Part shown: piece by piece, positions 16,355 through 30,228 of the stretch
Layout of the letters: each line of letters begins with the position of its first letter
How positions within the stretch are numbered: the stretch's first letter is position 1
Sequence record: OP312987.1
Origin: Escherichia phage vB_EcoS_Uz-1
Direction: 5' to 3' (one strand)
Length of the DNA stretch: 64,000 bases
Notes under the pieces: model-generated
Told to the model about the DNA's origin: nothing
The model's input: the letters and a program-made list of their open reading frames with translations, nothing else
The model's database searches: none
Translations under genes and position numbers: made by a program

Positions 16355-19300
16355 TTGAACAGGAAACATGCTATGTCAACATTTGACCGTCTGGCAGGTT
16401 TCGCAGACAGCATCACTAATGCTAAGCAAGTCGATGTCTCTACTGCAACCTCCCAGAAGCAAGCTGCACAAGGGCAAAGCCCTTTCCAATTAACCCCAGA
16501 GAATGCTTACAATCTCCAAACAGGTCGTGTAGGTAATCTTGGAATCGGTGCATTCGAACCAGGTTCACTTCAGGCAGATTTCACTCAAGCCTCCCCATTA
16601 GAAATTCTTAATAAATACGGTAATGAGCAAGGTCTACAGATTCTTAATAGCCGAGCTAATGCTGCTGATGCTGTACGTCAGGACTTATCTAAACAACGTA
16701 CTAACGCAGAAGCATTTGGCGATACTCTTTCTGGTGTTGGTCTTGGTGTTGCTAATACCCTTGGGGGCATTGCTGCTCTTGGTACAGGTCTGGTCAATGA
16801 TAATGCCGGGGCATCCATTGCTTCTGGGATGGATTGGCTGAATGAAGGTGTACATAATCTACAGTCTGATGCACTGAATGCTACCCGTAAGGTTGTTCAG
16901 AATCAGAACCAGATTTCTGCACAAAAGAACCAGAAGCTCTATAAGCAAGACATTAAAAATGGGGAGAGCAATTTAGTTGCCTCCTTGTCTCGTATTGGTC
17001 GTGACGCTTTTGATTCTGTTGCTAATACACTCGATAATGGTATGTCTGCTACTGACGGGTTAAGTGAGGGTGTTGGTTCCCTCTTTACTGGTGGTCCACT
17101 CATCCGTGGTGTATCTGCACTTGGTAAAGTAATGGTAGGTGGTAATAAAGCTGTTAAAGGCATTACCCTAGCTGCTGAGTTAGGTTCACGTCCTGCACAG
17201 GTTGCATTGTCTGCTGGTCGTGTTGCTGCACCTGCTATTGCAATTGGTGGTATGGAAGCAGGTGGTGCATACCAACAGACTGCTTCTGAAATCATGAAGA
17301 TGCCCATCAATGAATTGGCAAGTAAGTCTCCTGTTTATCAACAACATATTGCTGATGGTTTATCTCCTGATGAAGCACGTCGTCAGACTGCATCTGAGAC
17401 AGGTATCACTGCTGCTGGCTTAACTGCTCCAGTTGCTGCTGCTACCGGTCCACTGGTATCTCGCTTTGAACTTAACCCACTTAAGGTAGGTTCACTGGCT
17501 GGTGCTGGCTCTAATATGCTGCGTGAAACTGTAGAAGAAGGTATTCAGTCTGGTACAAGTCAGTTTGCACAGAACAAGGCAATTCAGGGTAATGTAGATG
17601 CTAAGCGTGATTTGCTTAAAGGTGTCGGTGAGCAAGCAGGTCTTGGTGCACTTTATGGCTTCGGTAGTGCTGGTGTTGCTCAGGCTCCAGGTGCAACTGT
17701 TAAAGCTGTTGGTGCTTCTGCTGGGCCTGCTTTACGTACTACTCTGGCAGGTGCTTCTCTGGTTGGTAAGGCATTAGCAAAAGTAGCCTCTCCTCTTACT
17801 AACATCCTGGTTCAACGTGGGGAAGAAGTTGCTAAGCGCAATGAGCAAGCATCCCCTGTAGCTGATGCTACGGTTAATGCTGCTGCACAGGAAGCTGCTT
17901 CTCAGGCAGAACAAGCACAGGCAACTGTACAGGAAGCAGTAGATGCAATGGACATCTCTCCAGAAGAGAAGGCTGCTGCTACCCAGTATGCTGCTGACTT
18001 AACTCAGGCAATGAAGTTTGACCCTGTAGAATTGGAACAAGCTAACCCAGTAATCCGTGAAGCTGTTTCTGGTTCCACTAACCGTGTAGAAGCTATTCAG
18101 AAAATGGCTGACTTGGTTAATACTGCTGAAGACCCTAACGTTCAAATGGAAGCTGCAATCCAGATGTATGACAATATCATGTCTATGGATAGCTTCATTA
18201 ATCGTGACCCGGGTGCTCTGGCTAATCTGGAACAGGGATCTCCTGCTGCTACAATCGTAGACCAGTTCTCCGGCCTGATGGCTAACGTACAGAATACCCC
18301 TAAAGTACTTCGTGCATTCCGTGCCATCCATTCCATGATTCAGGAACAGGCTGAAGCAGGTAAGCTGAAGGCTACTGAAGAAGCTAATCAAGCCCAAGCA
18401 AACAACATTGCTATGGCTGCCGATGTATCTCCAGAAGTACTGGATGCAGATTCAGTGAACATGGTTCTGAAACATGCAAGTGAAGGTAAGATTACACTGG
18501 GGAATCGTCAACGTGCTGCCCTGCAATCTGCTGCTGCCTTGTTACAGGGTGCACGAGAGTTCGACGCTAAAGCAGAAGAACTAGGCTTACGTCCTCAGGA
18601 CATTGTTAGTAAACAGATTAAAACCGACGAGTCTCGTTCTAATGAAGGACAGTACTCTGCGTTGCAACATGCGAAACGCATTCGTTCTGCGTATAACTCT
18701 GGTAACTTCGATTTGGCCTCCGCTTATCTGAGCGACTTTATGAAGTTCGCCCAGCACATGCAGAATAAGGTCGGAGCGTTGAATGAGCATCTGATTTCGG
18801 GGAATGCGGATAAGAATAAGTCTGTCCATTATCAGGCTCTCTCGCCTTCCCGTGAATGGGTACGTAGTCGTACTGGTCTTGGTGTCAATCCGTATGATAC
18901 CAAGTCGGTTAAGTTTGCCCAGCAAGTAGGACTGGAGGCCAAGACCGTAGCTGATATTGCTAACGCACTTGCTACGGCTTACCCGGAGCTTAATGTTTCT
19001 CATGTGAAAGTTACCCCATTGGATTCACGTCTGGACAAGCCTGCTGCCCAGGTAGTTAAAGAGTTCCGTCAAGGTGGTCTTGATGCCACTCAGTCTCAAC
19101 AGACTAATGAACCAGTGAATCAGGTTGATGAAACTCCTGCACCTGTGCAAGAGGCCACTACTACTGTACAGCCTAAAGCTAAACCAGTGGTAGAAAATAA
19201 GACTGTTCCTGTTAAGGAGACTAGTTCAAAAGCAGAAGAAGTCTCTACTACCGAATCCGAAAGGGATGCTTATGTGAAAGAAAATACTATTTCACAGGAC

Positions 19301-22300
19301 ATCCTCAATAAGAGTGGTGATCGTAGAGAGAGTCCTTGGCTCTTTGCTGATGGTACTGTTGTTGGTTCTAACGGTGATCACATTAGCCTGTCCGATGTAT
19401 TTGGTCACGATGGTTATCGTGATATGTCTCTGGACACTGGTGCTGTACGCTCCACTTTCTACAAAGGTAGTGAGCAACCATTTGTATCTCTGCAATTGTT
19501 TGATAATCAGAAGTTGACTGCTAAACAGTTTGATACTGTTAAGTCCTTTGTTGATGCTAACAATGCACTGATTCAAGTAGGTGTAGATACTTCTGGTCGT
19601 AATACCAATAACGTTGAGAAGGTAGAGGTATCACTGGCTCAACTGAAAGCAGACTATACTGTTGGTGGTAAACCTTTGTCTGAGATGGAAACAGTGTTCC
19701 CTGTTTATAACAATGACAAGACACCGAACCAGTTCCTTAAAGCATTTACCCTACCAGAAGAACCTAAGTCTCGTACCATTGGCTCTGAATCTCCTTTGAC
19801 TGATGTTAAGAAAGCACTGTCTTCTGCTGCTCGCTTTGAAGCATTCACTCAAAAAGAAAATAACGCTCTCACAAGTGATGTGATTAAGCGTTATCAGGAC
19901 TTAATGGACTTTGGTGAAACCCTGAAGACTACCCTGTCTGACCGTCTGACTAAGTTCCTTGCTAACAAGAATGTCGGTAAACGCTTTGCAGAAGGTACTG
20001 AGGCTAACCGTTGGGTAGGTGGTAAGTTACTTAACATCGTAGAGAAAGATGGGGATACCTTTAAGTTTAATGACCAGTTGTTAGAGACTGCTGTACTTGC
20101 TGGTCTGCAATGGCGATTGACTGCTACACAGAATGCTGCCGTTAAAGATATGAAAGACGTAGCTGCTATTACTGGTGTAGAAGCATCTCTGTTACCTGAA
20201 GGTATTCTGGCTGACTTCGAGAATGCTCAGACCCTGGTTGAAGCTACTAACTCACTGGCTCAAAAGATTGAATCTTATTGGGGTCTGAATCGTAATCCTA
20301 ATGCACCACTGGGTTATACCAAAGGTATCCCAATGGCAATGGCTACGGAGATTCTGTCTTCTCTCATTGAGATGGGTGAAGTTAAAGAATCTATGCTTGA
20401 TGTGTCTGAGATTGACCCAGATTCCAATAAGACTGTTGGTCTGTATACCATTGAGAAGCTGGATGACAATGATGCCATTAATAAATTCCCTACTGCTATT
20501 GAGGAAGCTGTCCTCTTAGAACCAGAAGAGAAAATGTACTTCGGTGACGACATTCCTTCCGTGGCTCAAACTCAGTTACGTAACCCGGCTGTTAAGAATA
20601 CCCCTGAGCAGAAAGCTGCACTGAAAGCCGAACAGGCTACCGAGTTCCGTGTACACATGCCGATGGTTAACTTCTATGAAGCATTGGGACGTGACAACAT
20701 TCTGGAACTGATGGGTGCTGGTACTCTTAACCCAGAACTACTGAACGTGAACACTGCTAAATCTCTGGAAGGTAAAAACCTGTCCGTATCCATGGCATAT
20801 GATTCTCTGTTTGGTGTAATCAGCCAGATACGGGAACAAGAGAATGGACTGGATACACCTATCCATTACGGTTACAACATGACCCGTGTAGGTCGTATGC
20901 AGATGCTTGGTAAGAACAACCCACAATCCAGTAAACTGGTTCGTGAAGCAATCTTACCGACTTTCTCTACTATCGACTTGAGTAATGAAAACAGCCAAGC
21001 GTTCTCTGACTTCCAGTTAGGACTGGCTCAGGCATTAGGCATCAAGGTACATAACATGTCCCGTGAAGCTATGTCTGAAAAGTTGACCAAGGCTCTGGAA
21101 GGTAATCTGAAACCTGCTGTTGATATGATGGTTGAGTTTGATAAGTCTGGGCACTTACCTGCTGATGCAGTAGATATTCTGAAGACCTCCTGGGTGGATG
21201 ATAAATCCTTCGTAGCTCTCATGGCTCTGATGGAATATGCCCGTTACCTGAACAGTGATGACCGTGCCAACTTTACTACTCCACTTTACGTTGAAGCTGA
21301 TGGAGTAACCAACGGCCCGATTAACGCAATGGTATTAATGACTGGTGGTAAGTTCACCCCAGACTGGATTAAGAATACTGCCAAAGGTGGCTTGTTCTTC
21401 GGCAAAGCTGGTAAGACTATGAACGAACATCGTTCACAGGATGACAGTGTTGACCTGTATGAAGCATCTACCAATGGTCTGCAACAAGCCCTGAATGAGT
21501 TACGTACTACTTACCGTAACAACGTTCCGGTTATGAGCCAGATGAATCATCTCCAGAAGTTAATGGACCTGTTCATCAAAGACTTTAACCTGAACGAAGA
21601 CGGTACTCTGGACCTGAAACGTGGTATCGCTAAAAACCCACTGACCATTACCATCTATGGCTCTGGTGCACGTGGTATTGCTGGCAAGATGGTTAGTGCA
21701 ATTACTGACACCATCTATGAACGCTTCAGTGACGTTCTGCAAGCACGGGCTGCTGACCCTAGCATTTCCCCGGCTATGGCAATGTTTGGTAAGGAGGCTG
21801 CGTCTGAGGCTGATGCTCAGGCTATGCTGGATACTTTCCTTACTTCTATGGAAGCACTGACTGGTAATGTTCCAGTTATGCGTAAAGGTGAATTGTCTAT
21901 TCAGCAAGTAGAGGGTGCTCTGACTGGTAAGTTAGACCCTCAGAAATTTACCGTATCCGGTAACGCCCTGAAGAACTTACAGGAGAACATGCTCCATCTG
22001 TTCGTTGAACCAATGCGTACTGGTATCCGTAATACTGTTGGTGAAGGTCTGATGCACTCTACCGAGAACTTGCAGAAGGCTACCCAGATTCAGTCTCTGG
22101 TATTGCAGGATATGTTCCAACAAGCAGTACAGGCTAAGCTGGCAGAAAAAGAAAAAGACCCAACCTGGAAGAAGGGTGATTTCTTAACCCAGAAAGAACT
22201 GAATGAAATCCAGGAATCATTGTCTCCATTGGCTCCAATGATTGAGACTGGTTCGCAGACTTTCTACATTGCTGGTAGTGAGAATACTGATGTTGCTAAC

Positions 22301-25300
22301 CAAGTGCTGGCTACCAACTTAGATGACCGTATGCGTGTGCCAATGAGCATCTATGCTCCTTCGCAGGCAGGTGTTGCAGGTATTCCATTTATGACCATTG
22401 GTACTGGTGATGGCATGATGATGCAGACCCTTTCTACTATGAAAGGTGCTCCGAAGAATACCCTTAAAATCTTTGATGGTATGAACATTGGTATCAACAA
22501 CATCACCGATGCAAGTCGTAAAGCTAACGAGGCTGTGTACACTTCCTGGCAGGGTAACCCTATCAAGAATGTTTATGACTCCTTCTCTAAGTTCATGAAG
22601 AATGTAGACTTCAGCAAACTGTCTGATGAAACCAAACAAGCCATTGCTAAGTCTGCTCTGGAATATGACCAGCGTGAAGGTGCTACTGATGACCTGTTAC
22701 GTGTTGGTGCTGAACAGATTGAACGTAACCTGCGTAACATTGCTCTGGGTGTAGATATTCGCCACAAAGTAATGAACCAGGTACAGACTACTGTTGACCA
22801 GATGGCAGCTGTAGGTGCTCCTTACGTTAATAATGGTAAAATCTCTCTGGAAGGTCTGACCGTAGACCAGCAAGTAGCTAAGCTGAACGAACTGTTTGAT
22901 GCTGAGTTAAACAAGCGTCGTGATGCAGTACGTGCTGCTAAAACAGAACCAGAGAAAGAAGTACCAGCAATGGAACAGGTTGGTCGTGTACTGAAGTCTG
23001 GTGTACGTCTACTGTCTAATACTGCTATCTCTAAGCTGGCTAAAGAGATGTCTCCGGAACAGCAAGCAGTATTGAAAGAAGTACAGAAATCCCTTGCTGC
23101 TAAAGACTACAAGGTTGTTTACGGTACACCTTCTCAACTGGATGCATACGCTATTGAGAAGAATATTACTCGCCCAGCACCGGAAGATATTGAAGCTGCT
23201 GAAGCAGGTAATGCGTATGGCTGGACTAATTTCGAGGATAAGACCATCTACTTAGTTACCCCTTCCTTAGAGACTCTGGTTCATGAATTGGTACATGCTT
23301 CTACTTTTGAATCTGTACTGGCTCACTATGAGGGTACTCCTAATGAAGCAGTCCAGAACATTGAAGACCTGATGAACCAGTTCCGTGCTCTGGATGTTAA
23401 GGATGAAACTCCGGCAGTACGCGAAGCATACGCAGATGCACTTAATACTATTAATGGTCATTTATCTAATGGCTTCATTGAACCAGCAATGGCTAAAGCT
23501 GCTGCATTAAATGAGTACATGGCGTGGGGCTTAACCAACCGTGAACTGATTAGTAAGCAGAAGAAAACTACTGCACTTAAGACTATGGTTCAGGCTGTAT
23601 ACGAAGCAATCAAGCGTCTGGTATTTGGGCGTAAGAAAGCACCAGCTAATGCAGATGATATGTTCTCAGGCTTACTGTTTAACTCTGCTGTAGTAATGCG
23701 TGGACAAGCTCCTACTGCTGCTGTAGCCAAAGATACTACCTTGTTCCATAACAAAGCATACGGTGACAATACTCGTCTGGAAGAGCTAGGGAAAACCTTT
23801 GATAAGTTGATTACTGATTACATTGGCTCAGAACCAGTACAGCAAGTAATTCGTAAAGGTAAGTTCTCTGATGCAGTAGTGAATGCAACTAAAGTAACTC
23901 GTGATGTTCAGGCTCATGGCTTCACTATGAATATGCAGGAACAGCGTCTCTTTACTAACATCGTTGCTGCTCTGGCTATTGAAGCTGCTATTAATCCTGC
24001 TGTCCCGGCTCGTGCACAGGAATACTATACGCATGTTACTAAGAACCTGACTGTTGAAGCATTCATGGCTGACCCAGATAGTACTAACCCTGCTGACCGT
24101 TACTATGCTCAACAGAAGTTCGATACCATCATGGGTGCTAACAACATTGAGTTTGATGCACAAGGTCGTTCTTCCTTACTGCCTACCTTTGTTGGTCTGG
24201 CAATGGTAAGTGAAGAAGTACGTAGAGTATTGGCTGACATTCCAGTTATGAAAGCAGATAAGCAATCCGGTAATACAGTTGATGCAATGCTGACTAACAT
24301 CGGTACTGCTGCAATGGCTAGTCTTAATGCTCGTGTAGCAGGTGATACCAAAGCTACCAACGTACAGGAAGGTATGGATGCACTGGCTCAGACAATCATG
24401 CAGACAAGTCTTAATGCACAATCCTTCTACGATTCCGTTGCTACTCCTAGTGGTAATGCTATTGATCGTGCTAACCAGTATCTGGTGGACTCTATTGATG
24501 TACTGTCTACCCGTGCTTTAGAAGGTGCTCGTGAAGTTGCAGCTAATACTAAGAACCCGTTGGTTAAAGGTGCTGCTCATGCTGCACAACTAATAGCTGC
24601 TATTGCCACAGAAAAGAATGGTGCAATCGTAGCTGAGGGTGTTATGGCTGCAATGAACCAGGGTAAGGTATGGCAACCTTTCCATGACCTGGTTAATGAC
24701 TTAACTGGTCGTACTAAGAGCAATGCTTCTGTATATGATTTGATTAAAGCAGTTCGTGCACAGGTACAAGCTGACCGTCAGCAGTTCCGTGAACATTTGC
24801 CTACCACTATCGCATCTAAGTTCAGCCGTAAGCTTACTAATGATGAGTGGAAAGCAATGCATACTGGTATGGGTAAAGCTGACTTAGCTGTTTTACGCGA
24901 CACTATGTCTCTGGCTGAAATCCGTGACTTGCTGACTGACCAGAAGATTGTTGACCGTGAAGTGAATAAGCTGGAAGCAGACTTGCAGAAACAAGCAGGA
25001 CGTAACTGGCCTCTGATTAGTCGTAAATCTAAGCAACTGGCTCAGTACATGATTAATGGCACAGTTGGTAATAATCTGCTGCGTAATGCTACTGCAATTT
25101 CCCGTATGCTGGGTGAACGTCAGGCTGCACGTTCTACTGTAGATGTAGCTCAACTGGATAAACTGATTACTCTGTATGCACTGGAAGCAATGAGTAAGAC
25201 TGACCGTGAGATGTTATCTTCACTGGCTCAGACAGAAGTTGAGGGAATGGACTTTGCTACTTCTTATCTGGTTGGGCAGCGTAAGGATGAAATGGCTAAA

Positions 25301-27085
25301 GCCAAATCTGATACTCGTGCAACCCTGAACCAGTACAAAGGGTATATCCCCAGTGAGACTAAACAGGGTGTTAACCTGATTGTTGCTGAAGATAGTCAGT
25401 TTGCTGATTTGATTGAGAAGTCCTACGTACGTTTAGGTACATATCAAGGTAGTTCTGCTAATCGTGGTCCAGCACGTAGCTACTATTTTGCACCGGTACA
25501 GGCACAGGCTCCATTCTCACAGGGTATCCTACAGAACGTTCGCAATACTGCTGGTGGTGTAGACCTTGGCACAGGCTTTACGATGGGTTCTATGGTAGCT
25601 GGTCGTATCACTGACAAGCCGTCCGTAGACCGAATCACTAAAGCACTGGCTCGCGGCGAGCGTGGGAATGAACCACTGCTGCCTGTATATGATGATAAAG
25701 GTAATGTAGTTGCTTATGAGCAATCTATTGACCCTAATATGCTGAAGCACATTGAGGGTGAAAATCATCTTGCTCGTGCAATCGGTGTATGGCGTGGTCG
25801 TCAGGTAGAGGAAGCTAAGGCTCAGCGTTTCAACGATATGCTGATTGAAAACCTGCATAACATGTATGAGAACGACATTAAGATGTCTGCCTCTAATAAG
25901 TCCCAGTACGTGAATCTCCTTGGTTCTAAACTGGACCCAGTAACTGCCGATGCACTTAAACTTATGAACAGTGAAACACGTCAGAAAGCTGAAAGTCTGT
26001 TTGGTGAAGGTGAACTGTGGGTACGGCGTGACATGCTGAATGATGCATTGGGTTATCGTGCAGCTTCTGTAGGGGATGCCTGGTCTGGTAATTCTCGTTG
26101 GTCCCCGGAAACACTGGATACCTTCAAGAAAGCTATGCTAGGTGTATTCGGTAACCGTGCTTATAAGTATGTAATGGGTGGTGAGAACCTGGTTCAGAAT
26201 TTAGTTAAAGAAGCCAAAACTCTGATTGTAGTTAAGTCAGTAGTTGTACCTGCTGTTAACTTCTTAGCTAACCTTTACCAGATGGTTGGTCGTGGTGTAC
26301 CTGTTAAGAACATTGCCAAGAGCATTCCACAGAAAACTGCTGAGATTAACCAGTACCTGAAATCTCGTCTGCGTCAGGTAGATGCAGAAGCAGAATTACG
26401 CGCAGCTACTAACCCGAACCAGATTCGTAAGCTTAAGGCTGAAATTCAGTCCATTACTGATAGCCATAAGCGTATGAGTATCTGGCCTCTGTTAGAAGCT
26501 GGTGAGTTCTCTTCAATTGCAGATGCTGGTATTGGTCGTGATGACATCCTGATTACTGAAGGTAAACTTCACGAATACATGGATAAGCTGGCTGATAAGT
26601 TACCTAAGTCTGTACGTAATGCTGGACGTTATGCACTTATAACCAAGGATACTGCTCTCTTCCAGGGTATCCAGAAGACGGTTGAGTACTCTGACTTTAT
26701 TGCTAAAGCAATCATCTATGATGACTTAACTCAGCGTAAAGGTAAGACTAGTGAAGAAGCACTTGGACGTGTAACAGAAGAGTTTATTAACTATGACCGT
26801 CTGCCAGGTCGATTCCGTGGGTATATGGAGAGTGTCGGTTTAATGTGGTTCTATAACTTTAAGATTCGTTCTGCAAAAGTTGCAGTATCCATGATTCGTA
26901 ATAACCCGGTACATGCAGCTATGGCTATGTTGGCTCCAACTCCTACCATGTTTGGTAACGTTGGTCTGCCTATTCAGGACAACATCTTCAGTATTGCTGC
27001 ACAAGGTAATCTCGGTTACTCCTGGGGCTTCGGACAAGGGCTACGTGCCCATAACCTGAACCCTTGGCTCAATCTTACTAACTAA
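16355..27085 (+). CDS. virion-encapsidated RNA polymerase (N4 gp50-like giant vRNAP)
   Basis: Single uninterrupted 3576-aa ORF (10.7 kb) at the end of the structural module. This size and placement is the hallmark of N4-like phages. Polymerase motifs were not verified by alignment. Confidence 0.85.
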   Translation: MNRKHAMSTFDRLAGFADSITNAKQVDVSTATSQKQAAQGQSPFQLTPENAYNLQTGRVGNLGIGAFEPGSLQADFTQASPLEILNKYGNEQGLQILNSRANAADAVRQDLSKQRTNAEAFGDTLSGVGLGVANTLGGIAALGTGLVNDNAGASIASGMDWLNEGVHNLQSDALNATRKVVQNQNQISAQKNQKLYKQDIKNGESNLVASLSRIGRDAFDSVANTLDNGMSATDGLSEGVGSLFTGGPLIRGVSALGKVMVGGNKAVKGITLAAELGSRPAQVALSAGRVAAPAIAIGGMEAGGAYQQTASEIMKMPINELASKSPVYQQHIADGLSPDEARRQTASETGITAAGLTAPVAAATGPLVSRFELNPLKVGSLAGAGSNMLRETVEEGIQSGTSQFAQNKAIQGNVDAKRDLLKGVGEQAGLGALYGFGSAGVAQAPGATVKAVGASAGPALRTTLAGASLVGKALAKVASPLTNILVQRGEEVAKRNEQASPVADATVNAAAQEAASQAEQAQATVQEAVDAMDISPEEKAAATQYAADLTQAMKFDPVELEQANPVIREAVSGSTNRVEAIQKMADLVNTAEDPNVQMEAAIQMYDNIMSMDSFINRDPGALANLEQGSPAATIVDQFSGLMANVQNTPKVLRAFRAIHSMIQEQAEAGKLKATEEANQAQANNIAMAADVSPEVLDADSVNMVLKHASEGKITLGNRQRAALQSAAALLQGAREFDAKAEELGLRPQDIVSKQIKTDESRSNEGQYSALQHAKRIRSAYNSGNFDLASAYLSDFMKFAQHMQNKVGALNEHLISGNADKNKSVHYQALSPSREWVRSRTGLGVNPYDTKSVKFAQQVGLEAKTVADIANALATAYPELNVSHVKVTPLDSRLDKPAAQVVKEFRQGGLDATQSQQTNEPVNQVDETPAPVQEATTTVQPKAKPVVENKTVPVKETSSKAEEVSTTESERDAYVKENTISQDILNKSGDRRESPWLFADGTVVGSNGDHISLSDVFGHDGYRDMSLDTGAVRSTFYKGSEQPFVSLQLFDNQKLTAKQFDTVKSFVDANNALIQVGVDTSGRNTNNVEKVEVSLAQLKADYTVGGKPLSEMETVFPVYNNDKTPNQFLKAFTLPEEPKSRTIGSESPLTDVKKALSSAARFEAFTQKENNALTSDVIKRYQDLMDFGETLKTTLSDRLTKFLANKNVGKRFAEGTEANRWVGGKLLNIVEKDGDTFKFNDQLLETAVLAGLQWRLTATQNAAVKDMKDVAAITGVEASLLPEGILADFENAQTLVEATNSLAQKIESYWGLNRNPNAPLGYTKGIPMAMATEILSSLIEMGEVKESMLDVSEIDPDSNKTVGLYTIEKLDDNDAINKFPTAIEEAVLLEPEEKMYFGDDIPSVAQTQLRNPAVKNTPEQKAALKAEQATEFRVHMPMVNFYEALGRDNILELMGAGTLNPELLNVNTAKSLEGKNLSVSMAYDSLFGVISQIREQENGLDTPIHYGYNMTRVGRMQMLGKNNPQSSKLVREAILPTFSTIDLSNENSQAFSDFQLGLAQALGIKVHNMSREAMSEKLTKALEGNLKPAVDMMVEFDKSGHLPADAVDILKTSWVDDKSFVALMALMEYARYLNSDDRANFTTPLYVEADGVTNGPINAMVLMTGGKFTPDWIKNTAKGGLFFGKAGKTMNEHRSQDDSVDLYEASTNGLQQALNELRTTYRNNVPVMSQMNHLQKLMDLFIKDFNLNEDGTLDLKRGIAKNPLTITIYGSGARGIAGKMVSAITDTIYERFSDVLQARAADPSISPAMAMFGKEAASEADAQAMLDTFLTSMEALTGNVPVMRKGELSIQQVEGALTGKLDPQKFTVSGNALKNLQENMLHLFVEPMRTGIRNTVGEGLMHSTENLQKATQIQSLVLQDMFQQAVQAKLAEKEKDPTWKKGDFLTQKELNEIQESLSPLAPMIETGSQTFYIAGSENTDVANQVLATNLDDRMRVPMSIYAPSQAGVAGIPFMTIGTGDGMMMQTLSTMKGAPKNTLKIFDGMNIGINNITDASRKANEAVYTSWQGNPIKNVYDSFSKFMKNVDFSKLSDETKQAIAKSALEYDQREGATDDLLRVGAEQIERNLRNIALGVDIRHKVMNQVQTTVDQMAAVGAPYVNNGKISLEGLTVDQQVAKLNELFDAELNKRRDAVRAAKTEPEKEVPAMEQVGRVLKSGVRLLSNTAISKLAKEMSPEQQAVLKEVQKSLAAKDYKVVYGTPSQLDAYAIEKNITRPAPEDIEAAEAGNAYGWTNFEDKTIYLVTPSLETLVHELVHASTFESVLAHYEGTPNEAVQNIEDLMNQFRALDVKDETPAVREAYADALNTINGHLSNGFIEPAMAKAAALNEYMAWGLTNRELISKQKKTTALKTMVQAVYEAIKRLVFGRKKAPANADDMFSGLLFNSAVVMRGQAPTAAVAKDTTLFHNKAYGDNTRLEELGKTFDKLITDYIGSEPVQQVIRKGKFSDAVVNATKVTRDVQAHGFTMNMQEQRLFTNIVAALAIEAAINPAVPARAQEYYTHVTKNLTVEAFMADPDSTNPADRYYAQQKFDTIMGANNIEFDAQGRSSLLPTFVGLAMVSEEVRRVLADIPVMKADKQSGNTVDAMLTNIGTAAMASLNARVAGDTKATNVQEGMDALAQTIMQTSLNAQSFYDSVATPSGNAIDRANQYLVDSIDVLSTRALEGAREVAANTKNPLVKGAAHAAQLIAAIATEKNGAIVAEGVMAAMNQGKVWQPFHDLVNDLTGRTKSNASVYDLIKAVRAQVQADRQQFREHLPTTIASKFSRKLTNDEWKAMHTGMGKADLAVLRDTMSLAEIRDLLTDQKIVDREVNKLEADLQKQAGRNWPLISRKSKQLAQYMINGTVGNNLLRNATAISRMLGERQAARSTVDVAQLDKLITLYALEAMSKTDREMLSSLAQTEVEGMDFATSYLVGQRKDEMAKAKSDTRATLNQYKGYIPSETKQGVNLIVAEDSQFADLIEKSYVRLGTYQGSSANRGPARSYYFAPVQAQAPFSQGILQNVRNTAGGVDLGTGFTMGSMVAGRITDKPSVDRITKALARGERGNEPLLPVYDDKGNVVAYEQSIDPNMLKHIEGENHLARAIGVWRGRQVEEAKAQRFNDMLIENLHNMYENDIKMSASNKSQYVNLLGSKLDPVTADALKLMNSETRQKAESLFGEGELWVRRDMLNDALGYRAASVGDAWSGNSRWSPETLDTFKKAMLGVFGNRAYKYVMGGENLVQNLVKEAKTLIVVKSVVVPAVNFLANLYQMVGRGVPVKNIAKSIPQKTAEINQYLKSRLRQVDAEAELRAATNPNQIRKLKAEIQSITDSHKRMSIWPLLEAGEFSSIADAGIGRDDILITEGKLHEYMDKLADKLPKSVRNAGRYALITKDTALFQGIQKTVEYSDFIAKAIIYDDLTQRKGKTSEEALGRVTEEFINYDRLPGRFRGYMESVGLMWFYNFKIRSAKVAVSMIRNNPVHAAMAMLAPTPTMFGNVGLPIQDNIFSIAAQGNLGYSWGFGQGLRAHNLNPWLNLTN

Positions 27086-27729: not shown

Positions 27730-28110
27730 TCAAATGGTGCAACCACCACCATCACAGGTATTGTTTTCTGCAAAAGAAGCCAGAGCCTTAGCTGTTTCTT
27801 CTTTCTCATGCATTGCTTGACGTAGCAGGTAACCTTCTAATTCCCAAATCTTATTGAATGCAATTTCGTATGCATACTGACGGCCCTTCTGCTCATCATA
27901 GATGGCCGGGTCAACGCAGGCAGATACACCTTCAACTTTGAAGTCGTTTTCCAGGATGATAACACAATAGGTTACTAGACCCAGGTTAGCCAAATCGTCT
28001 GCCGGTAGTGCAGATGGATCAACGAATGCAGACTTCACTGCATCAGCACCATTAAAATAGTAAACGCTCTTAATCTTAGCTTCGATTGCTTCTTTACTTA
28101 CTGTTGCCAT
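27730..28110 (-). CDS. hypothetical protein
   Basis: Start re-derived at ATG 28110 (MATVSKEAI) with GAGG RBS; followed by a hairpin terminator. Confidence 0.45.
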   Translation of the reverse strand: MATVSKEAIEAKIKSVYYFNGADAVKSAFVDPSALPADDLANLGLVTYCVIILENDFKVEGVSACVDPAIYDEQKGRQYAYEIAFNKIWELEGYLLRQAMHEKEETAKALASFAENNTCDGGGCTI

Positions 28111-28170
28111 TATTAGCCTCATAGAGTGGTTTGAGTTTGTACTTAAACATGACTGCGTTCATTAATACTC

Positions 28171-28198
28171 AAATAAAAAAGTCCCCCAGAGGAGGGAC
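28171..28198 (-). terminator. intrinsic terminator (minus strand) downstream of the tRNA region
   Basis: On the minus strand a GTCCC/GGGAC stem is followed by TTTTTTTATTT. Confidence 0.5.
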
Positions 28199-28423
28199 TT
28201 AGTAGCTTTAACGCAGCTAACGAGGCTAGGCCAGTCAACTACTACCACTAGTGTTTGTACCAGCGATGCGGGTTGATAGCCCGATAGTAGTAAACTGGGT
28301 TTGAGATTTTTAGTGTTCTCATAGCGAAACCGTCAGGGAGAATAACAATAAATAGAGCCACGGACTGTCTTACCAGTGTTGTCTTTAGAATGCTATGCAA
28401 TCAGGACTATGTTCTCTATTAAT

Positions 28424-28500
28424 GGGTGTCCACTACTGGATTTGAACCAGTGACCTTCCGATTATTAGTCGGTTGCTTTCCCAGTCTAAGCTAAGTGGAC
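28424..28500 (-). tRNA. tRNA, canonical cloverleaf; anticodon reads AAU by hand fold (Ile-type), isotype unconfirmed
   Basis: Minus strand GTCCACT-TA-GCTT-AGACTGGGA-AAGC-A-ACCGA-CUAAUAA-UCGGA-AGGUC-ACUGG-UUCAAAU-CCAGU-AGUGGAC-A. Perfect 7-bp acceptor stem, D-arm, T-arm with TTCAAAT loop; anticodon stem has one mismatch. Confidence 0.6.
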
Positions 28501-28945
28501 ATAAATGAGTGAGTCATGCCAGGCTCTAACTGGCTCCTTCTTCGCAATCCTTACATACCCCTACATAATTATTGCGTTAAGCTTTTATTGTTTAAGTTTA
28601 AGTGAAGGCGTTCTTGCTGACTCATAATTGGGTGGGCGTTTGACGAATGACTAGTTCGTTACTACCCGTTTGCCATAAGTACCTGGCGACTTTGGTTTGA
28701 GGTGGGAGTCCGAGTCCTGTACAGCCTTACCGTTCACACATTGGCAGCATATCTAGAATTGCACTTCCGGCAACTGGATTTAACTGTTACACCTCAAATA
28801 TGGTAGGGGCGTCCAGAAGTCTCATCTGGTACTTACGCCGTCGTATGGTTACGACTTACCCCCATAATCTTACTAATTCAGAGTAGCACTGCTCCATGTT
28901 TGGCCTTTGAACTCCGGGATGGATTAGTGCAATGCTACTTTGAAT

Positions 28946-29069
28946 TGGTTACCAGTGAGGGATTCGAACCCCCGGTTGGAGTCTATAGCTTACCGCAGCA
29001 GCTCTCCAATCTAGCGGTGTCACACTTAGTCCAAACTTGAACATATCAAGCTATCTCGTGCAACTGATA
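28946..29069 (-). tRNA. tRNA-like element with encoded CCA; about 124 nt, non-canonical by manual folding
   Basis: T-arm GGGGG-TTCGAAT-CCCTC, then ACTGGTA-A-CCA. The only partner for the 3' acceptor strand (TATCAGT, one G-U) lies about 120 nt upstream. Confidence 0.3.
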
Positions 29070-29071
29070 AT

Positions 29072-29137
29072 TGGTTCCGGCGTCTGGACTCGAACCAGAA
29101 CACTTATGCCGTGCACGACACTAGTACCTACACCGGA
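29072..29137 (-). tRNA. tRNA-like element with encoded CCA; about 66 nt, lacks a foldable D/anticodon region
   Basis: Acceptor TCCGGTG pairs with CGCCGGA (one G-U). T-arm TCTGG-TTCGAGT-CCAGA, discriminator A and CCA, but only 29 nt between acceptor and T-arm. Confidence 0.3.
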
Positions 29138-29203
29138 ATTAATTGCCAGGGATTCCACCTGGTCCATCTGTTTTTATAGTCACTCAGATATCGTCTGGAC
29201 TGT

Positions 29204-29279
29204 AGGCATGGGTGGGAATCGAACCCACAAACCATTCAGCACTGTAGCCTCACGCTCTACCTATTTGAGCTATCACACA
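29204..29279 (-). tRNA. tRNA-like element, 76 nt, with canonical D-arm and T-arm but unpaired acceptor and anticodon stems in my fold
   Basis: D-arm GCTC-AAATAGGTA-GAGC and T-arm GTGGG-TTCGATT-CCCAC at canonical spacing; acceptor and anticodon stems do not pair by eye. Confidence 0.35.
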
Positions 29280-29572
29280 CCATTGATTAACTCCCCGTTT
29301 CTAATACACGGACGAGGACACTCCATGGTCGTTTGATAATCAGGACGACTCACTCCCGACTGACGCTTGGCTTATTAGGCTGCCATCAGAACAACATCAT
29401 CGTTTGCATTTATGTTATTGGTTCGTTTCTAAAAAACCGCATAATCGCTTACGAAAACTATCAAAGAGTACACTAAGCACAGGTAGCTACCCTGCCGTCT
29501 TCTCCACCTACACCGGCTACAGTGTAAACCTCCGCACGTTAGCTTAATGTACTCATTGATAGGATGTCAGTA

Positions 29573-29642
29573 GGTCGGGGGCTGGATTCGAACCAGCGAG
29601 AGAAGTAGCGACCATCTGCACATGCCTACGTGCTACCTCGAC
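29573..29642 (-). tRNA. tRNA-like element with acceptor, D-arm and T-arm but no clear anticodon stem
   Basis: GTCGAGG ... CCCCGAC acceptor (6 of 7 pairs), D-arm GCAC-GTAGGCAT-GTGC, T-arm GCTGG-TTCGAAT-CCAGC; only 20 nt between D-arm and T-arm. Confidence 0.35.
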
Positions 29643-30027
29643 CATTATAATAGGAGGGAGGGGACGAATCCTCCCTTTATATCCTATATTGCATGTAAGA
29701 TCTAACAGTTCGATGTTGTAGGTAGCTAGGCTATCCGACATTTAACCCAGCCATATAGGGCTTATGTGATTAGAATGCTCAACATTGAGCGGTTAGTTTG
29801 ATAAGGGATCTGAAGCCTTATCCTAAAGATACTAACCTTTGGGATATAGCCTAAGATTCAGAAATGGCCCCTATAGGGAGAGGCCATTGATTAACCCGAA
29901 TGTTGCTTTACATTTTCTGTGATAACCAATTCTTAAAATAGTCTACCTGACGGATGGGGGCCACCCCTAGCGTCAGTGCCATACGGCAAAGATTAAGTTA
30001 AGAAAGGTTATGATAGGAGTTCCTATC

Positions 30028-30228
30028 TCAAAGGATTCTAACAGAACCATTTACGATATTAACTACTCTTTTTAATGCTTCTACTTCACCCTCTCTATAC
30101 CAAGCATATGGTACTAAGATTTTGCAGCCTTCTGATTCAATGTGAAATGCTTTCTTTCCTTCAACGGGTTCTCCACCCATGAAAGAACTAACCTTTCCAT
30201 TGAGCCAGTGAATAGTAAATTTGTTCAT
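30028..30228 (-). CDS. small hypothetical protein
   Basis: Track ORF 30028..30327; the N-terminal 33 codons are poly-N/low-complexity, so the internal ATG at 30228 (MNKFTIHWLNGK) is preferred. Weak RBS. Confidence 0.3.
   Translation of the reverse strand: MNKFTIHWLNGKVSSFMGGEPVEGKKAFHIESEGCKILVPYAWYREGEVEALKRVVNIVNGSVRIL

Follow-up and report, generated by a model that had tools for sequence, protein, structure and literature searches.

A putative tmRNA-derived module with an arm complementary to host tmRNA in a phage island of tRNA-like RNAs

Introduction

A stretch of 64,000 nucleotides (nt) from Escherichia phage vB_EcoS_Uz-1 (OP312987.1), referred to throughout as the window, carries five elements with the T arm of a transfer RNA (tRNA) between positions 28424 and 29642 of its minus strand. 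A first-pass annotation of this region described one canonical tRNA with an unusual anticodon and four elements that do not fold as standard cloverleaves, and proposed that the latter might be degenerate or noncanonical tRNAs, tRNAs damaged by insertion or deletion (indel) errors, or tRNA-like RNAs with another role. The question raised by this locus is what the irregular elements are and what kind of RNA they accompany. The analysis presented here suggests that the irregular elements are conserved tRNA-like RNAs and that two of them enclose a feature absent from the first-pass annotation, a module resembling the coding part of transfer-messenger RNA (tmRNA) with an arm complementary to the tmRNA of the host. 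The five elements are designated E1 to E5 in 5' to 3' order on the minus strand, and all features lie on that strand unless stated otherwise.

Results

A tmRNA-like module with a constrained tag frame

The module occupies approximately 170 nt at 29291-29460 (-), between E1 and E2. A permissive Rfam search matched it to tmRNA_permuted (33.4 bits, E=2e-4) and to beta-proteobacterial tmRNA, over 29327-29478. The scores for RF04321, RF01849 and RF01850 (33.4, 24.7 and 23.2 bits) fall below the respective cut-offs of 47, 50 and 84 bits, and the gathering score of the one-piece tmRNA model RF00023 was likewise not reached (15.5 bits against 47). Every copy of the module that was tested gave the same picture, with matches to tmRNA families alone and all of them below threshold.

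The predicted tag frame at 29372-29407 reads GCA AAC GAU GAU GUU GUU CUG AUG GCA GCC (ANDDVVLMAA) and is followed by UAA UAA; it is delimited by Rfam, by the family variants and by ARAGORN, which at a 90% threshold (-ps90) reads the same peptide. Before it, a conserved single-stranded linker (29408-29429) ends in AUAAAU directly ahead of the GCA resume codon, and no AUG or Shine-Dalgarno start precedes the tag in the window, where an in-frame UAG can be read 7 codons upstream. In the tmRNA of E. coli the corresponding U85 and A86 set the frame and are essential, and function is lost when the surroundings of the resume codon are paired (PMC2481249). Among 54 non-redundant variants of the module, on which the figures for the tag are based, A-4 is present in 54/54 and U-5 in 53/54.

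The tag itself varies in the manner of a coding sequence. The 54 variants hold 28 nucleotide versions and 19 peptides, all exactly 10 codons long before UAA, and the tag columns of the alignment are free of gaps while indels occur in both flanks. Variation in codons 1, 2, 9 and 10 is mainly at third positions: GCA alternates with GCU in codon 1 and AAC with AAU in codon 2, both Ala and Val are specified by synonymous variants in codon 9, and every one of the four Ala codons occurs in codon 10. The peptides fit the tmRNA pattern AN[DE]x..L[MA][AV]A.

Downstream of the tag, an H-type pseudoknot (29328-29359) is similar to the second pseudoknot (PK2) of beta-proteobacterial tmRNA in the Rfam alignment. 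In its stem 1, three pairs carry 11-26 double substitutions and are paired in 54/54 variants according to RNAalifold, and its stem 2 occurs as GUCGU:ACGAC, CCGA:UCGG and CCAA:UUGG. The module ends in a hairpin, HP3 (29291-29317), with the conserved loop GUGUAUUAGAA (family consensus GUG(U)AUUAxxAA) on a stem that varies in sequence and length. Pairing in h5, PK2 stem 2 and HP3 was assessed sequence by sequence, because their registers differ between subfamilies and column-wise covariation on the MAFFT alignment was dropped for them. The mRNA-like domain of a tmRNA is thus recognizable in full: A-4/U-5, a resume codon, a short tag open reading frame (ORF) and a stop. These comparisons mark the module as a widespread, apparently tmRNA-derived RNA without a tRNA-like domain (TLD), whose predicted tag frame is constrained like a protein and looks translated.

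An arm complementary to host tmRNA

At 29430-29460, where tmRNA would carry its first pseudoknot (PK1) upstream of the resume codon, the module has a segment antisense to host tmRNA, together with a short self-pairing discussed below. This arm, UAGUUUUCGU-aa-GCGAUUAU-GCGGUUUUUUA, with blocks at 29451-29460 and 29441-29448 among others, has three collinear stretches of reverse complementarity to E. coli tmRNA: to tmRNA nt 97-106 (ACGAAAACUA, tag codons 3-6), to nt 84-91 (AUAGUCGC), where U85 and A86 lie together with the two initial bases of the resume codon, and to nt 68-78 (UAAAAAGCCGC), the 3' strand of PK1. Watson-Crick complementarity of at least 8 nt to ssrA 96-106 is found in 51/54 variants, and the paired blocks have a mean column identity of 0.95, compared with 0.83 for the spacer between blocks 1 and 2, which is variable in length and contains gapped columns. 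Among the arm variants, that of Serratia phage 2050H1 has GCGGGC.

Significance was assessed by local alignment to the reverse complement of ssrA, for which 15,988 48-nt windows of the vB_EcoS_Uz-1 sequence provided the null distribution (mean 14.6, sd 2.2, max 28). The arm scores 26 here, a value reached by 12/5000 dinucleotide shuffles, and higher in other copies: 29 in Felixounavirus dune, 31 in Akira, 32 in Magnus, 33 in P1, 36 in SJ3, 37 in L182, 41 in SG01 and 42 in the lambdoid L174. As negative controls, six non-enterobacterial tmRNAs, obtained as unrelated matches of a contig search with a non-specific 15-mer, score 15-24. The arm fits host tmRNA better than the phage's own template in 55/55 variants (mean 33 vs 14), the best duplex formed by each of 13 divergent arms lies on tmRNA 64/67-106, and cofolding of the window arm with ssrA 60-115 gives -33.5 kcal/mol (ddG -23.9). 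The complementarity is therefore of the kind expected in silico of a trans-acting antisense RNA, being conserved, statistically significant and directed at a defined host target. The opposite strand of the arm was also considered as a sense tag fragment and was rejected, as the frame is not conserved between lineages.

Such complementarity, the best-supported feature of the module on present predictions, would also be accounted for if the module were an antisense inhibitor or decoy alone, one that shuts down or modulates trans-translation, either by base pairing to host tmRNA or by titration of SmpB or S1, and whose tag is never translated. The absence of a TLD would agree with this, as would the position of the P1 module beside a dicF-like antisense small RNA, and pairing over U85/A86 should block use of the host template (PMC2481249). 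Such a function alone is nonetheless unlikely, for it leaves unexplained why the tag always has 10 codons and a stop, why it is free of indels and varies synonymously at third positions, and why the tmRNA-style composition and U-5/A-4 are conserved.

Immediately upstream, the minimum free energy (MFE) fold places a 'clamp' hairpin, CCUAUCAAUGAGUACAUUA...UAGUGUACUCUUUGAUAG, with a variable insert at 29458-29563; clamps with other inserts are present in KP8, PhAPEC5, HK620, P1 and lambdoid prophages. The clamp repeats have the form CAACAGG-UAAGAGCAUU ... AGUGCUCUU-UCC-GUUG, and their highly variable apical inserts are in some cases tRNA-like with a T arm (window 29458-29563; L123 1665-1770; L174 -95..-20 and +150..+225 relative to the module). 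A helix GUUGUGG...CCACAAC follows each clamp, and CACAAC, GUUGUGG and CCACAAC permit mutually exclusive pairings.

No tRNA-like domain accompanies the module

The other half of a tmRNA was not recovered: at default settings, ARAGORN called no tmRNA either in the window or at 204 related loci. At lowered thresholds ARAGORN proposes TLD partners that are imperfect, lack G3.U70 and vary between phages; in L177 the 5' strand of the partner lies upstream of the promoter. For the window, this produced a one-piece tmRNA at 29204-29496 that uses the T arm of E2 and has a G.A mismatch in the acceptor, C3-G70 and no CCA. It was rejected as a TLD because E2 belongs to a family that is autonomous elsewhere and because the partners differ between phages. 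A further ARAGORN tmRNA call, with the tag 'AGTNYQLHEIA', was spurious.

These results bear on whether the module could be the coding piece of a split phage tmRNA, for which E3 or E4, encoded separately, would supply the acceptor. E3 does resemble an isolated tmRNA TLD, in that it combines an acceptor and T arm with a 14-nt analogue of the D loop and a capped helix and ends in A-CCA; its 5' half recurs in the clamp insert upstream of the tag; the Rfam matches of the module are to two-piece families; and tmRNAs are what the lowered-threshold ARAGORN proposes. However, no candidate acceptor has G3.U70 when the sequences are read, and complementarity to the module is not above that of shuffled controls for E3 and E4, nor for any of E1-E5. 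N4 has E3 but no module, and P1, HK620 and SG01 have the module but neither E3 nor E4. The changing partners and the absence of default calls count against a split tmRNA too. A split tmRNA is accordingly regarded as distinctly improbable.

Distribution of the module

A BLAST query with the Akira-type module matched 710 of 50,697 phage records; all ten of the most frequent name groups among these are phages of Enterobacterales. The module was also found in 657 of the 5426 complete E. coli genomes (12%), at 555 plasmid and 150 chromosomal places that represent mostly P1-like plasmids and lambdoid prophages. No RNA is annotated by PGAP at the E. coli places, the GenBank phage records inspected are blank at the module, and full-text literature searches found no description of a phage tmRNA-like or anti-tmRNA RNA. 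As far as sequence comparison can tell, this is a real and widespread family, conserved across many unrelated phage lineages.

The genomic setting differs among these lineages. The module occurs in P1, P7, D6 and SJ46, and in P1 (AF234172, L002 2393-2670) it lies in the C1-controlled leader of the ban operon, where it adjoins the 3' side of the annotated 'dicF-like region' and is followed ~290 nt later by tRNA-Asn and tRNA-Thr; this position makes the leader a string of small-RNA cassettes. In HK620 (L126 1244-1951) and other lambdoid prophages (L174, L129, L130, L153) the module follows pR'/qut/tR' with the 6S-like terminator and precedes the holin gene (holin S), so that its synthesis would require Q antitermination and be restricted to the late phase of infection. 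T1-like and Akira-type siphoviruses provide it with its own TTGACA-17-TAGATT promoter and follow it with tRNAs and a terminator. In both Akira-type and Felixounavirus phages the sigma-70 promoter puts the 5' end of the RNA directly at the arm. Further copies are found in Ackermannviridae, KP8, PhAPEC5 and Felixounavirus. The Felixounavirus copy in dune (L326 631-830), which is outside the 54 variants, has a TTGACA-17-TATAGT promoter of its own at the arm; the arm lacks block 3 and extends block 2 into the A-run of the host, and the tag, ANDNVFLAVA, ends in UGA UAG.

Five T-arm elements, one canonical tRNA

The five minus-strand elements with good T arms that had been reported from the letters were recovered independently: the pattern GGTTCRANTCC has five matches in the 64-kb window (28438, 28960, 29086, 29215 and 29584), all on the minus strand and spanning 28438-29594, where 0.16 would be expected and where five were reached in 0/100 shuffles. 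It also holds that 28424-28500 alone is a canonical tRNA: the sole tRNA at gathering score in Rfam is 28427-28500 (E5), with 65 bits against the RF00005 threshold of 29 bits; E1-E4 remained below that threshold. The first-pass annotation had allowed that its hand folds might be wrong, but its description proved accurate. E3 and E4 received no default ARAGORN call and no Rfam tRNA match at E<=10. The default ARAGORN run made three calls, tRNA-Ile(aat) at 28423-28501 (E5), 'tRNA-Cys(aca)' at 29202-29280 (E2) and 'tRNA-Ala(cgc)' at 29572-29643 (E1), and accepted the latter two only with mismatched acceptor, D or anticodon stems, in keeping with the irregular stems originally noted. The MFE folds of the elements are not cloverleaves and their thermodynamic z-scores are unremarkable, as is usual for tRNA-sized RNAs. 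In intron mode ARAGORN proposed a 'tRNA-Pro with an 82-nt intron' spanning E3 and E4, which was judged spurious. Rfam also matches 'Plastid-ycf2 5UTR' to the antisense strand of genuine tRNAs (window 28426-28500 (+) and related loci, 28-38 bits), which is an artefact of that model and not a feature.

E1 (29572-29643) lies immediately 5' of the clamp. ARAGORN gives it an 8-bp acceptor with an A.C mismatch and a 3-bp D stem, its best Rfam match is tRNA-Sec (26.3 bits at 29573-29643, cut-off 47), and it is limited to the subgroup of phage Bp4 (13 phage records, 92-100% identity). In E2 (29202-29281) the D and T arms are canonical, the 'anticodon' stem is non-Watson-Crick and CCA is absent; the ARAGORN call carries G.G and T.C mismatches, and in Rfam the T arm alone matches (15.5 bits). 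Comparison with the tRNA clusters of other phages proved informative here, as the E2 family also stands at the end of the tRNA cluster in T4-like Klebsiella phages, where it is annotated tRNA-Gln-CTG, and in jumbo phages. An alignment with the copies of Klebsiella phages ATCCa and Muenster shows covariation in the acceptor and conservation of both G.G mismatches in the 'anticodon stem', and across the family the central triplet varies (ACA, CUG, AAA). The 'anticodon' region of E2, GGCUACAGUG (29239-29248), is a perfect 10-nt complement of CACUGUAGCC in the clamp insert (~29516-29525); 24/500 shuffles equalled this match (p~0.05), which may be due to chance.

The two CCA-ending elements had been sized at 66 and about 124 nt, and their exact limits are 29072-29137 (E3, 66 nt) and 28946-29069 (E4, 124 nt). 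E3 is a tRNA-like minihelix with an acceptor of 7 bp (UCCGGUG/CGCCGGA) and a T arm of 5 bp; its 14-nt linker resembles a D loop, its hairpin is capped, and the element ends in A-CCA. It is 98.6% identical to N4 (EF056009 32866-32937), and its hairpin and T stem show compensatory changes in KP8-type phages and in L192. E4 combines a 7-bp acceptor, a T arm and A-CCA with an enlarged 'D' domain and an extended 'anticodon' arm. Its acceptor covaries, from UAUCAGU/ACUGGUA here to UACCAGU/ACUGGUA in PhAPEC5 and UACUGGU/ACCAGUA in KP8, and the inner hairpin and T stem covary too. Neither E3 nor E4 has an anticodon-loop-like structure. The second copy of the E3 5' half (29497-29517 vs 29117-29137, GCCGGUGUAGGUGGAGAAGAC vs UCCGGUGUAGGUACUAGUGUC) occurs in the Bp4 subgroup only, and its format, a 7-nt strand and a 14-nt loop ending in GAC, is reminiscent of the 5' end of E. 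coli tmRNA.

Because of the compensatory changes in E2, E3 and E4 and the 98.6% identity of E3 in N4, the four noncanonical elements are best described as conserved tRNA-like RNAs, apparently under structural selection, and not as the degenerate tRNAs considered at first; the suggestion of noncanonical tRNA-like RNAs with another role fits the evidence. It is very improbable that the whole region is evolutionary debris, in the form of decaying tRNA pseudogenes and a captured, rearranged ssrA fragment with no present function. The mosaic nature of the region, with element combinations that differ in close relatives, the restriction of E1 to one subgroup and the unremarkable z-scores would be compatible with decay. 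Yet stems are upheld by compensatory changes, the tag frame is intact in 54/54 variants, the module spans many unrelated phage lineages in 710 records, and its arm tracks the host and not its own template.

An Ile2-type tRNA with a changed anticodon

E5 (28424-28500) is a canonical tRNA, and both ARAGORN and Rfam agree with the anticodon AAU reported for it. It ends in ACCC without an encoded CCA. The body is that of tRNA-Ile2 (ileX-type), with 74-75% identity to P1 trnI, and the homologues in P1 (annotated tRNA-Ile2, ileX-like), T1-like phages and Ackermannviridae read CAU and sit at the same operon position. All four Gamaleyavirus variants have AAU, with covariation in the acceptor, and the C34 that makes tRNA-Ile2 a TilS substrate is replaced by A in 4/4. 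The anticodon is thus unusual in a specific way: E5 appears to be an Ile2-type tRNA with a fixed C34A change, confined to Gamaleyavirus among the homologues compared. It shares with the lysidine-modified tRNA-Ile2 (CAU) of P1 and many phages the body, the anticodon stem-loop GACUxAUAAUCG, the T arm and the operon position, and differs in A34 and in the missing CCA. With A instead of C at position 34, lysidine cannot be formed, and the codon expected to be decoded is AUU, with further codons added should the base be deaminated. Of the Ile codons, AUU is the one used most in the large ORFs (32 per 1000). A motif upstream of E5, AUGUAGGGGUAUGUA (28549-28566), also precedes the CAU tRNA of Akira-type siphoviruses (L123 ~1895-1915), and the N4 version reads CAUAGGGGUAUGUUAGGG.

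The variable triplet of the E2 family, whose fold is kept while ACA, CUG and AAA replace one another, and the fixed C34A change of E5 could also indicate that the tRNA-like elements act as decoys or substitutes directed against tRNA-targeting host defences (anticodon nucleases) or tRNA-modifying enzymes and not as processing signals. Changes in the anticodon loops of phage tRNAs have been proposed as a means of defence evasion (PMC10264068). E3 and E4 do not fit, as they are without an anticodon-loop-like structure, and the proposal is considered improbable as the full account. It is compatible with the explanation preferred below and does not exclude it.

The RNA island and its genomic context

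The elements and the module belong to an ORF-poor RNA island of ~1.85 kb (28173-30027), between an ORF ending at 30028 and a gp48-like ORF at 27730-28122. The strand of the island has the same orientation as the flanking gp46/47-like and gp48/49-like genes. It closes with an intrinsic terminator (28173-28200; AAGUCCCUCCUCUGGGGGACUU and a U-tract), found by a terminator scan as a 9-bp stem with 5 GC pairs and a T-run. The phage of the window is a Gamaleyavirus, an N4-like coliphage: 28200-29900 aligns gap-free over 1701/1701 nt with Escherichia phage Bp4 (Schitoviridae, Gamaleyavirus) at 95.9% identity, ECBP1 and PD38 are similarly close, and a 3576-aa ORF at 16355-27085 is the counterpart of the virion RNA polymerase. 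The same gap exists in the Bp4 annotation, flanked by orf34 and orf33. In N4 the equivalent gap between gp47 and gp48 is an RNA operon that holds four canonical tRNAs, a copy of E3 and further shared structured segments.

This alignment settles whether assembly or sequencing indels broke ordinary tRNA genes, as the first-pass annotation had suspected. Indel errors are excluded by the 100% identity of 29200-29660 with Bp4; the 1701-nt alignment is free of gaps, and Bp4, ECBP1, PD38 and N4 carry the same sequences at the same lengths, and the elements occur in KP8 as well. The explanation, for which nothing spoke beyond the initial suspicion, can be considered refuted and effectively without likelihood.

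Several further segments of the island are conserved. A structured segment at 29146-29200, GUCCAGACGAUAUCUG...CAGAUGGACCAGGUGGAAUCCCUGG, is common to N4, KP8, PhAPEC5 and siphovirus contig L161. Within it GUCCAGACGAUAUCUGAGUGACUAUAAAAACAGAUGGACCAGGUGGAAUCCCUGG stands upstream of E3 both here and in N4 (L202 1437-1497), is also present in L161, and permits alternative CAGA/UCUG/CAGA pairings. At 28702-28792, a ~90-nt segment (GUGUAACAGUUAAAUCCAGUUGCCGGAAGUGCAAUUCUAGAU...GGACUCCCAC) is near-identical in N4 (L202 ~1860-1955) between divergent flanks and is another conserved RNA. A hairpin GGGAGGAUUCGUCCCCUCCC followed by UCCUAUUAU, at 29656-29675 just upstream of E1, is kept in PhAPEC5 and could be a terminator, a promoter or a processing hairpin at the start of the module RNA. 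In N4, a tRNA-like domain with the T arm UUAGGUUCGAAUCCUAA lies inside a long closing helix, UUCGUAAGAACUCUUA...UAAGAGUUCUUUCGAA (L202 1572-1680), an architecture that is YrlA-like without an Rfam YrlA match. Two mechanical ORFs overlap the RNA elements (29037-29336 (+), 99 aa; 29553-29741 (-), 62 aa), and several GenBank records have 'hypothetical proteins' annotated across the island, which are probably spurious.

Discussion

The explanation preferred here, held tentatively and somewhat short of an even chance, is that the island is an operon of structured RNAs that encodes no protein, is cotranscribed with its neighbouring genes up to the strong terminator and is then processed, whose cargo would pair with host tmRNA and probably substitute a phage tag. 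Host tRNA-processing enzymes (RNase P, 3' trimming and the CCA enzyme) would recognize the tRNA-like elements and in doing so divide the long transcript into separate small RNAs. E1 ends 8 nt before the clamp hairpin and E2 starts 9 nt after HP3, and in KP8 a tRNA and E4 take the positions held here by E1 and E2. The module might in this way be released as an RNA of ~290 nt (29282-29571) that includes the upstream clamp hairpin, while E3 and E4 would remain as stable tRNA mimics with CCA ends. The arm would then pair with host tmRNA and mask its template and resume region. Host tmRNA could still provide its alanyl-tRNA-like domain and SmpB, and the phage template, tethered next to PK1 at roughly the place of the host template, would be read instead, such that rescued proteins would receive AANDDVVLMAA in place of AANDENYALAA; the P1 module would confer AANDDLMMVAA. 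That the module acts as such a 'tag-swap' RNA, a template without a TLD that docks on host tmRNA by antisense pairing, masks the resume codon and has its own tag translated, is possible but doubtful when taken as a claim of its own.

Several observations weigh against this explanation. The whole case is in silico, and to our knowledge there is no precedent for reading a template tethered in trans to tmRNA. The arm of the window is among the weakest of the family, with its score of 26 placed at about rank 18 of 15,988, and the raw RNAduplex energy is not a genome-wide outlier; such energies were uninformative because GC-rich windows dominate them, and were replaced by the alignment statistics. 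By eye, arm block 2 covaries with the phage's own pre-resume sequence (UUAU:AUAA vs CUUUG:CAAAG), so an intramolecular pseudoknot may replace, compete with or alternate with pairing to the host. N4 has the island and E3 without the module, and PhAPEC5 has the module without adjacent tRNA-like elements, from which it follows that 'tRNA punctuation' is not universal.

Should the arm work as predicted, ribosome rescue in Enterobacterales would be directly targeted by a phage RNA. Some temperate phages depend on tmRNA, and the module could be linked to this dependence. Should the tag also be exchanged, trans-translation would be reprogrammed by a third RNA, a new mode of delivering a template to the ribosome, and C-terminal tags of the AANDDVVLMAA type would be detectable on proteins of infected cells. 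The module would also offer a possible natural scaffold for programmable C-terminal tagging. For the tRNA-like elements, the annotations 'tRNA-OTHER/Undet/Cys/Ala/Gln' in N4-like, T4-like and jumbo phages denote conserved tRNA-like RNAs and no decoders. The KP8 paper lists only six tRNA genes, two of them unidentified. CCA-ending minihelices of the E3 type might also mimic the TLD of tmRNA.

Comparison with known systems

Stable RNAs of the T4 tRNA cluster and YrlA or Y-RNA-like tRNA mimics are known examples of tRNA-like processing signals or stable mimics. The elements described here are like them in the mimicry of T arm and acceptor among tRNA genes and, in relatives, in tRNA-like domains that are sometimes set in long closing helices. 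Unlike YrlA, they have no Ro/Rsr context, and E3 and E4 have free CCA ends; the YrlA/bacterial Y RNA model (RF02553) was rejected, as its hits, all on true tRNAs, were no stronger than 25.6 bits (cut-off 69).

The module shares with E. coli-type tmRNA (SsrA, RF00023) the U-5/A-4 resume context, a downstream H-type pseudoknot, a short Ala-initiated tag that ends in a hydrophobic residue, Ala-Ala and one or more stops, a stop region within a helix, and the first 9 nt of the frame, which are the same as in the host (GCAAACGAU/C). It differs in having no TLD, G3.U70 or P2 helix and apparently no PK1, with the anti-host-tmRNA segment in their place, in having one pseudoknot and one hairpin, and in falling below the Rfam and ARAGORN thresholds. 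Two-piece tmRNAs (alpha- and beta-proteobacteria, cyanobacteria; RF01849, RF01850, RF04321) provide the best sub-threshold Rfam matches, and the resemblance of the coding part extends from the pre-resume sequence through PK2. The module has no acceptor piece before it, the start of its coding part lacks an acceptor 5' strand, and no partner RNA with helices complementary to it was found.

Complete tmRNA genes exist in some phages, such as mycobacteriophages and huge phages, and are found by standard tools. Like these, the module would be a phage-borne tag template that could alter the fate of rescued proteins; unlike them, it is without a TLD and carries an arm against host tmRNA. With the DicF-type antisense small RNAs of prophages it shares a place in phage operon leaders, a predicted processing from longer transcripts and extended complementarity to a host RNA, and it differs in that its predicted target is tmRNA and not an mRNA and in that it also carries a tag template. 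The module itself would thus be a tmRNA-derived RNA, and the exchange of tags, if true, would be a categorically new mechanism.

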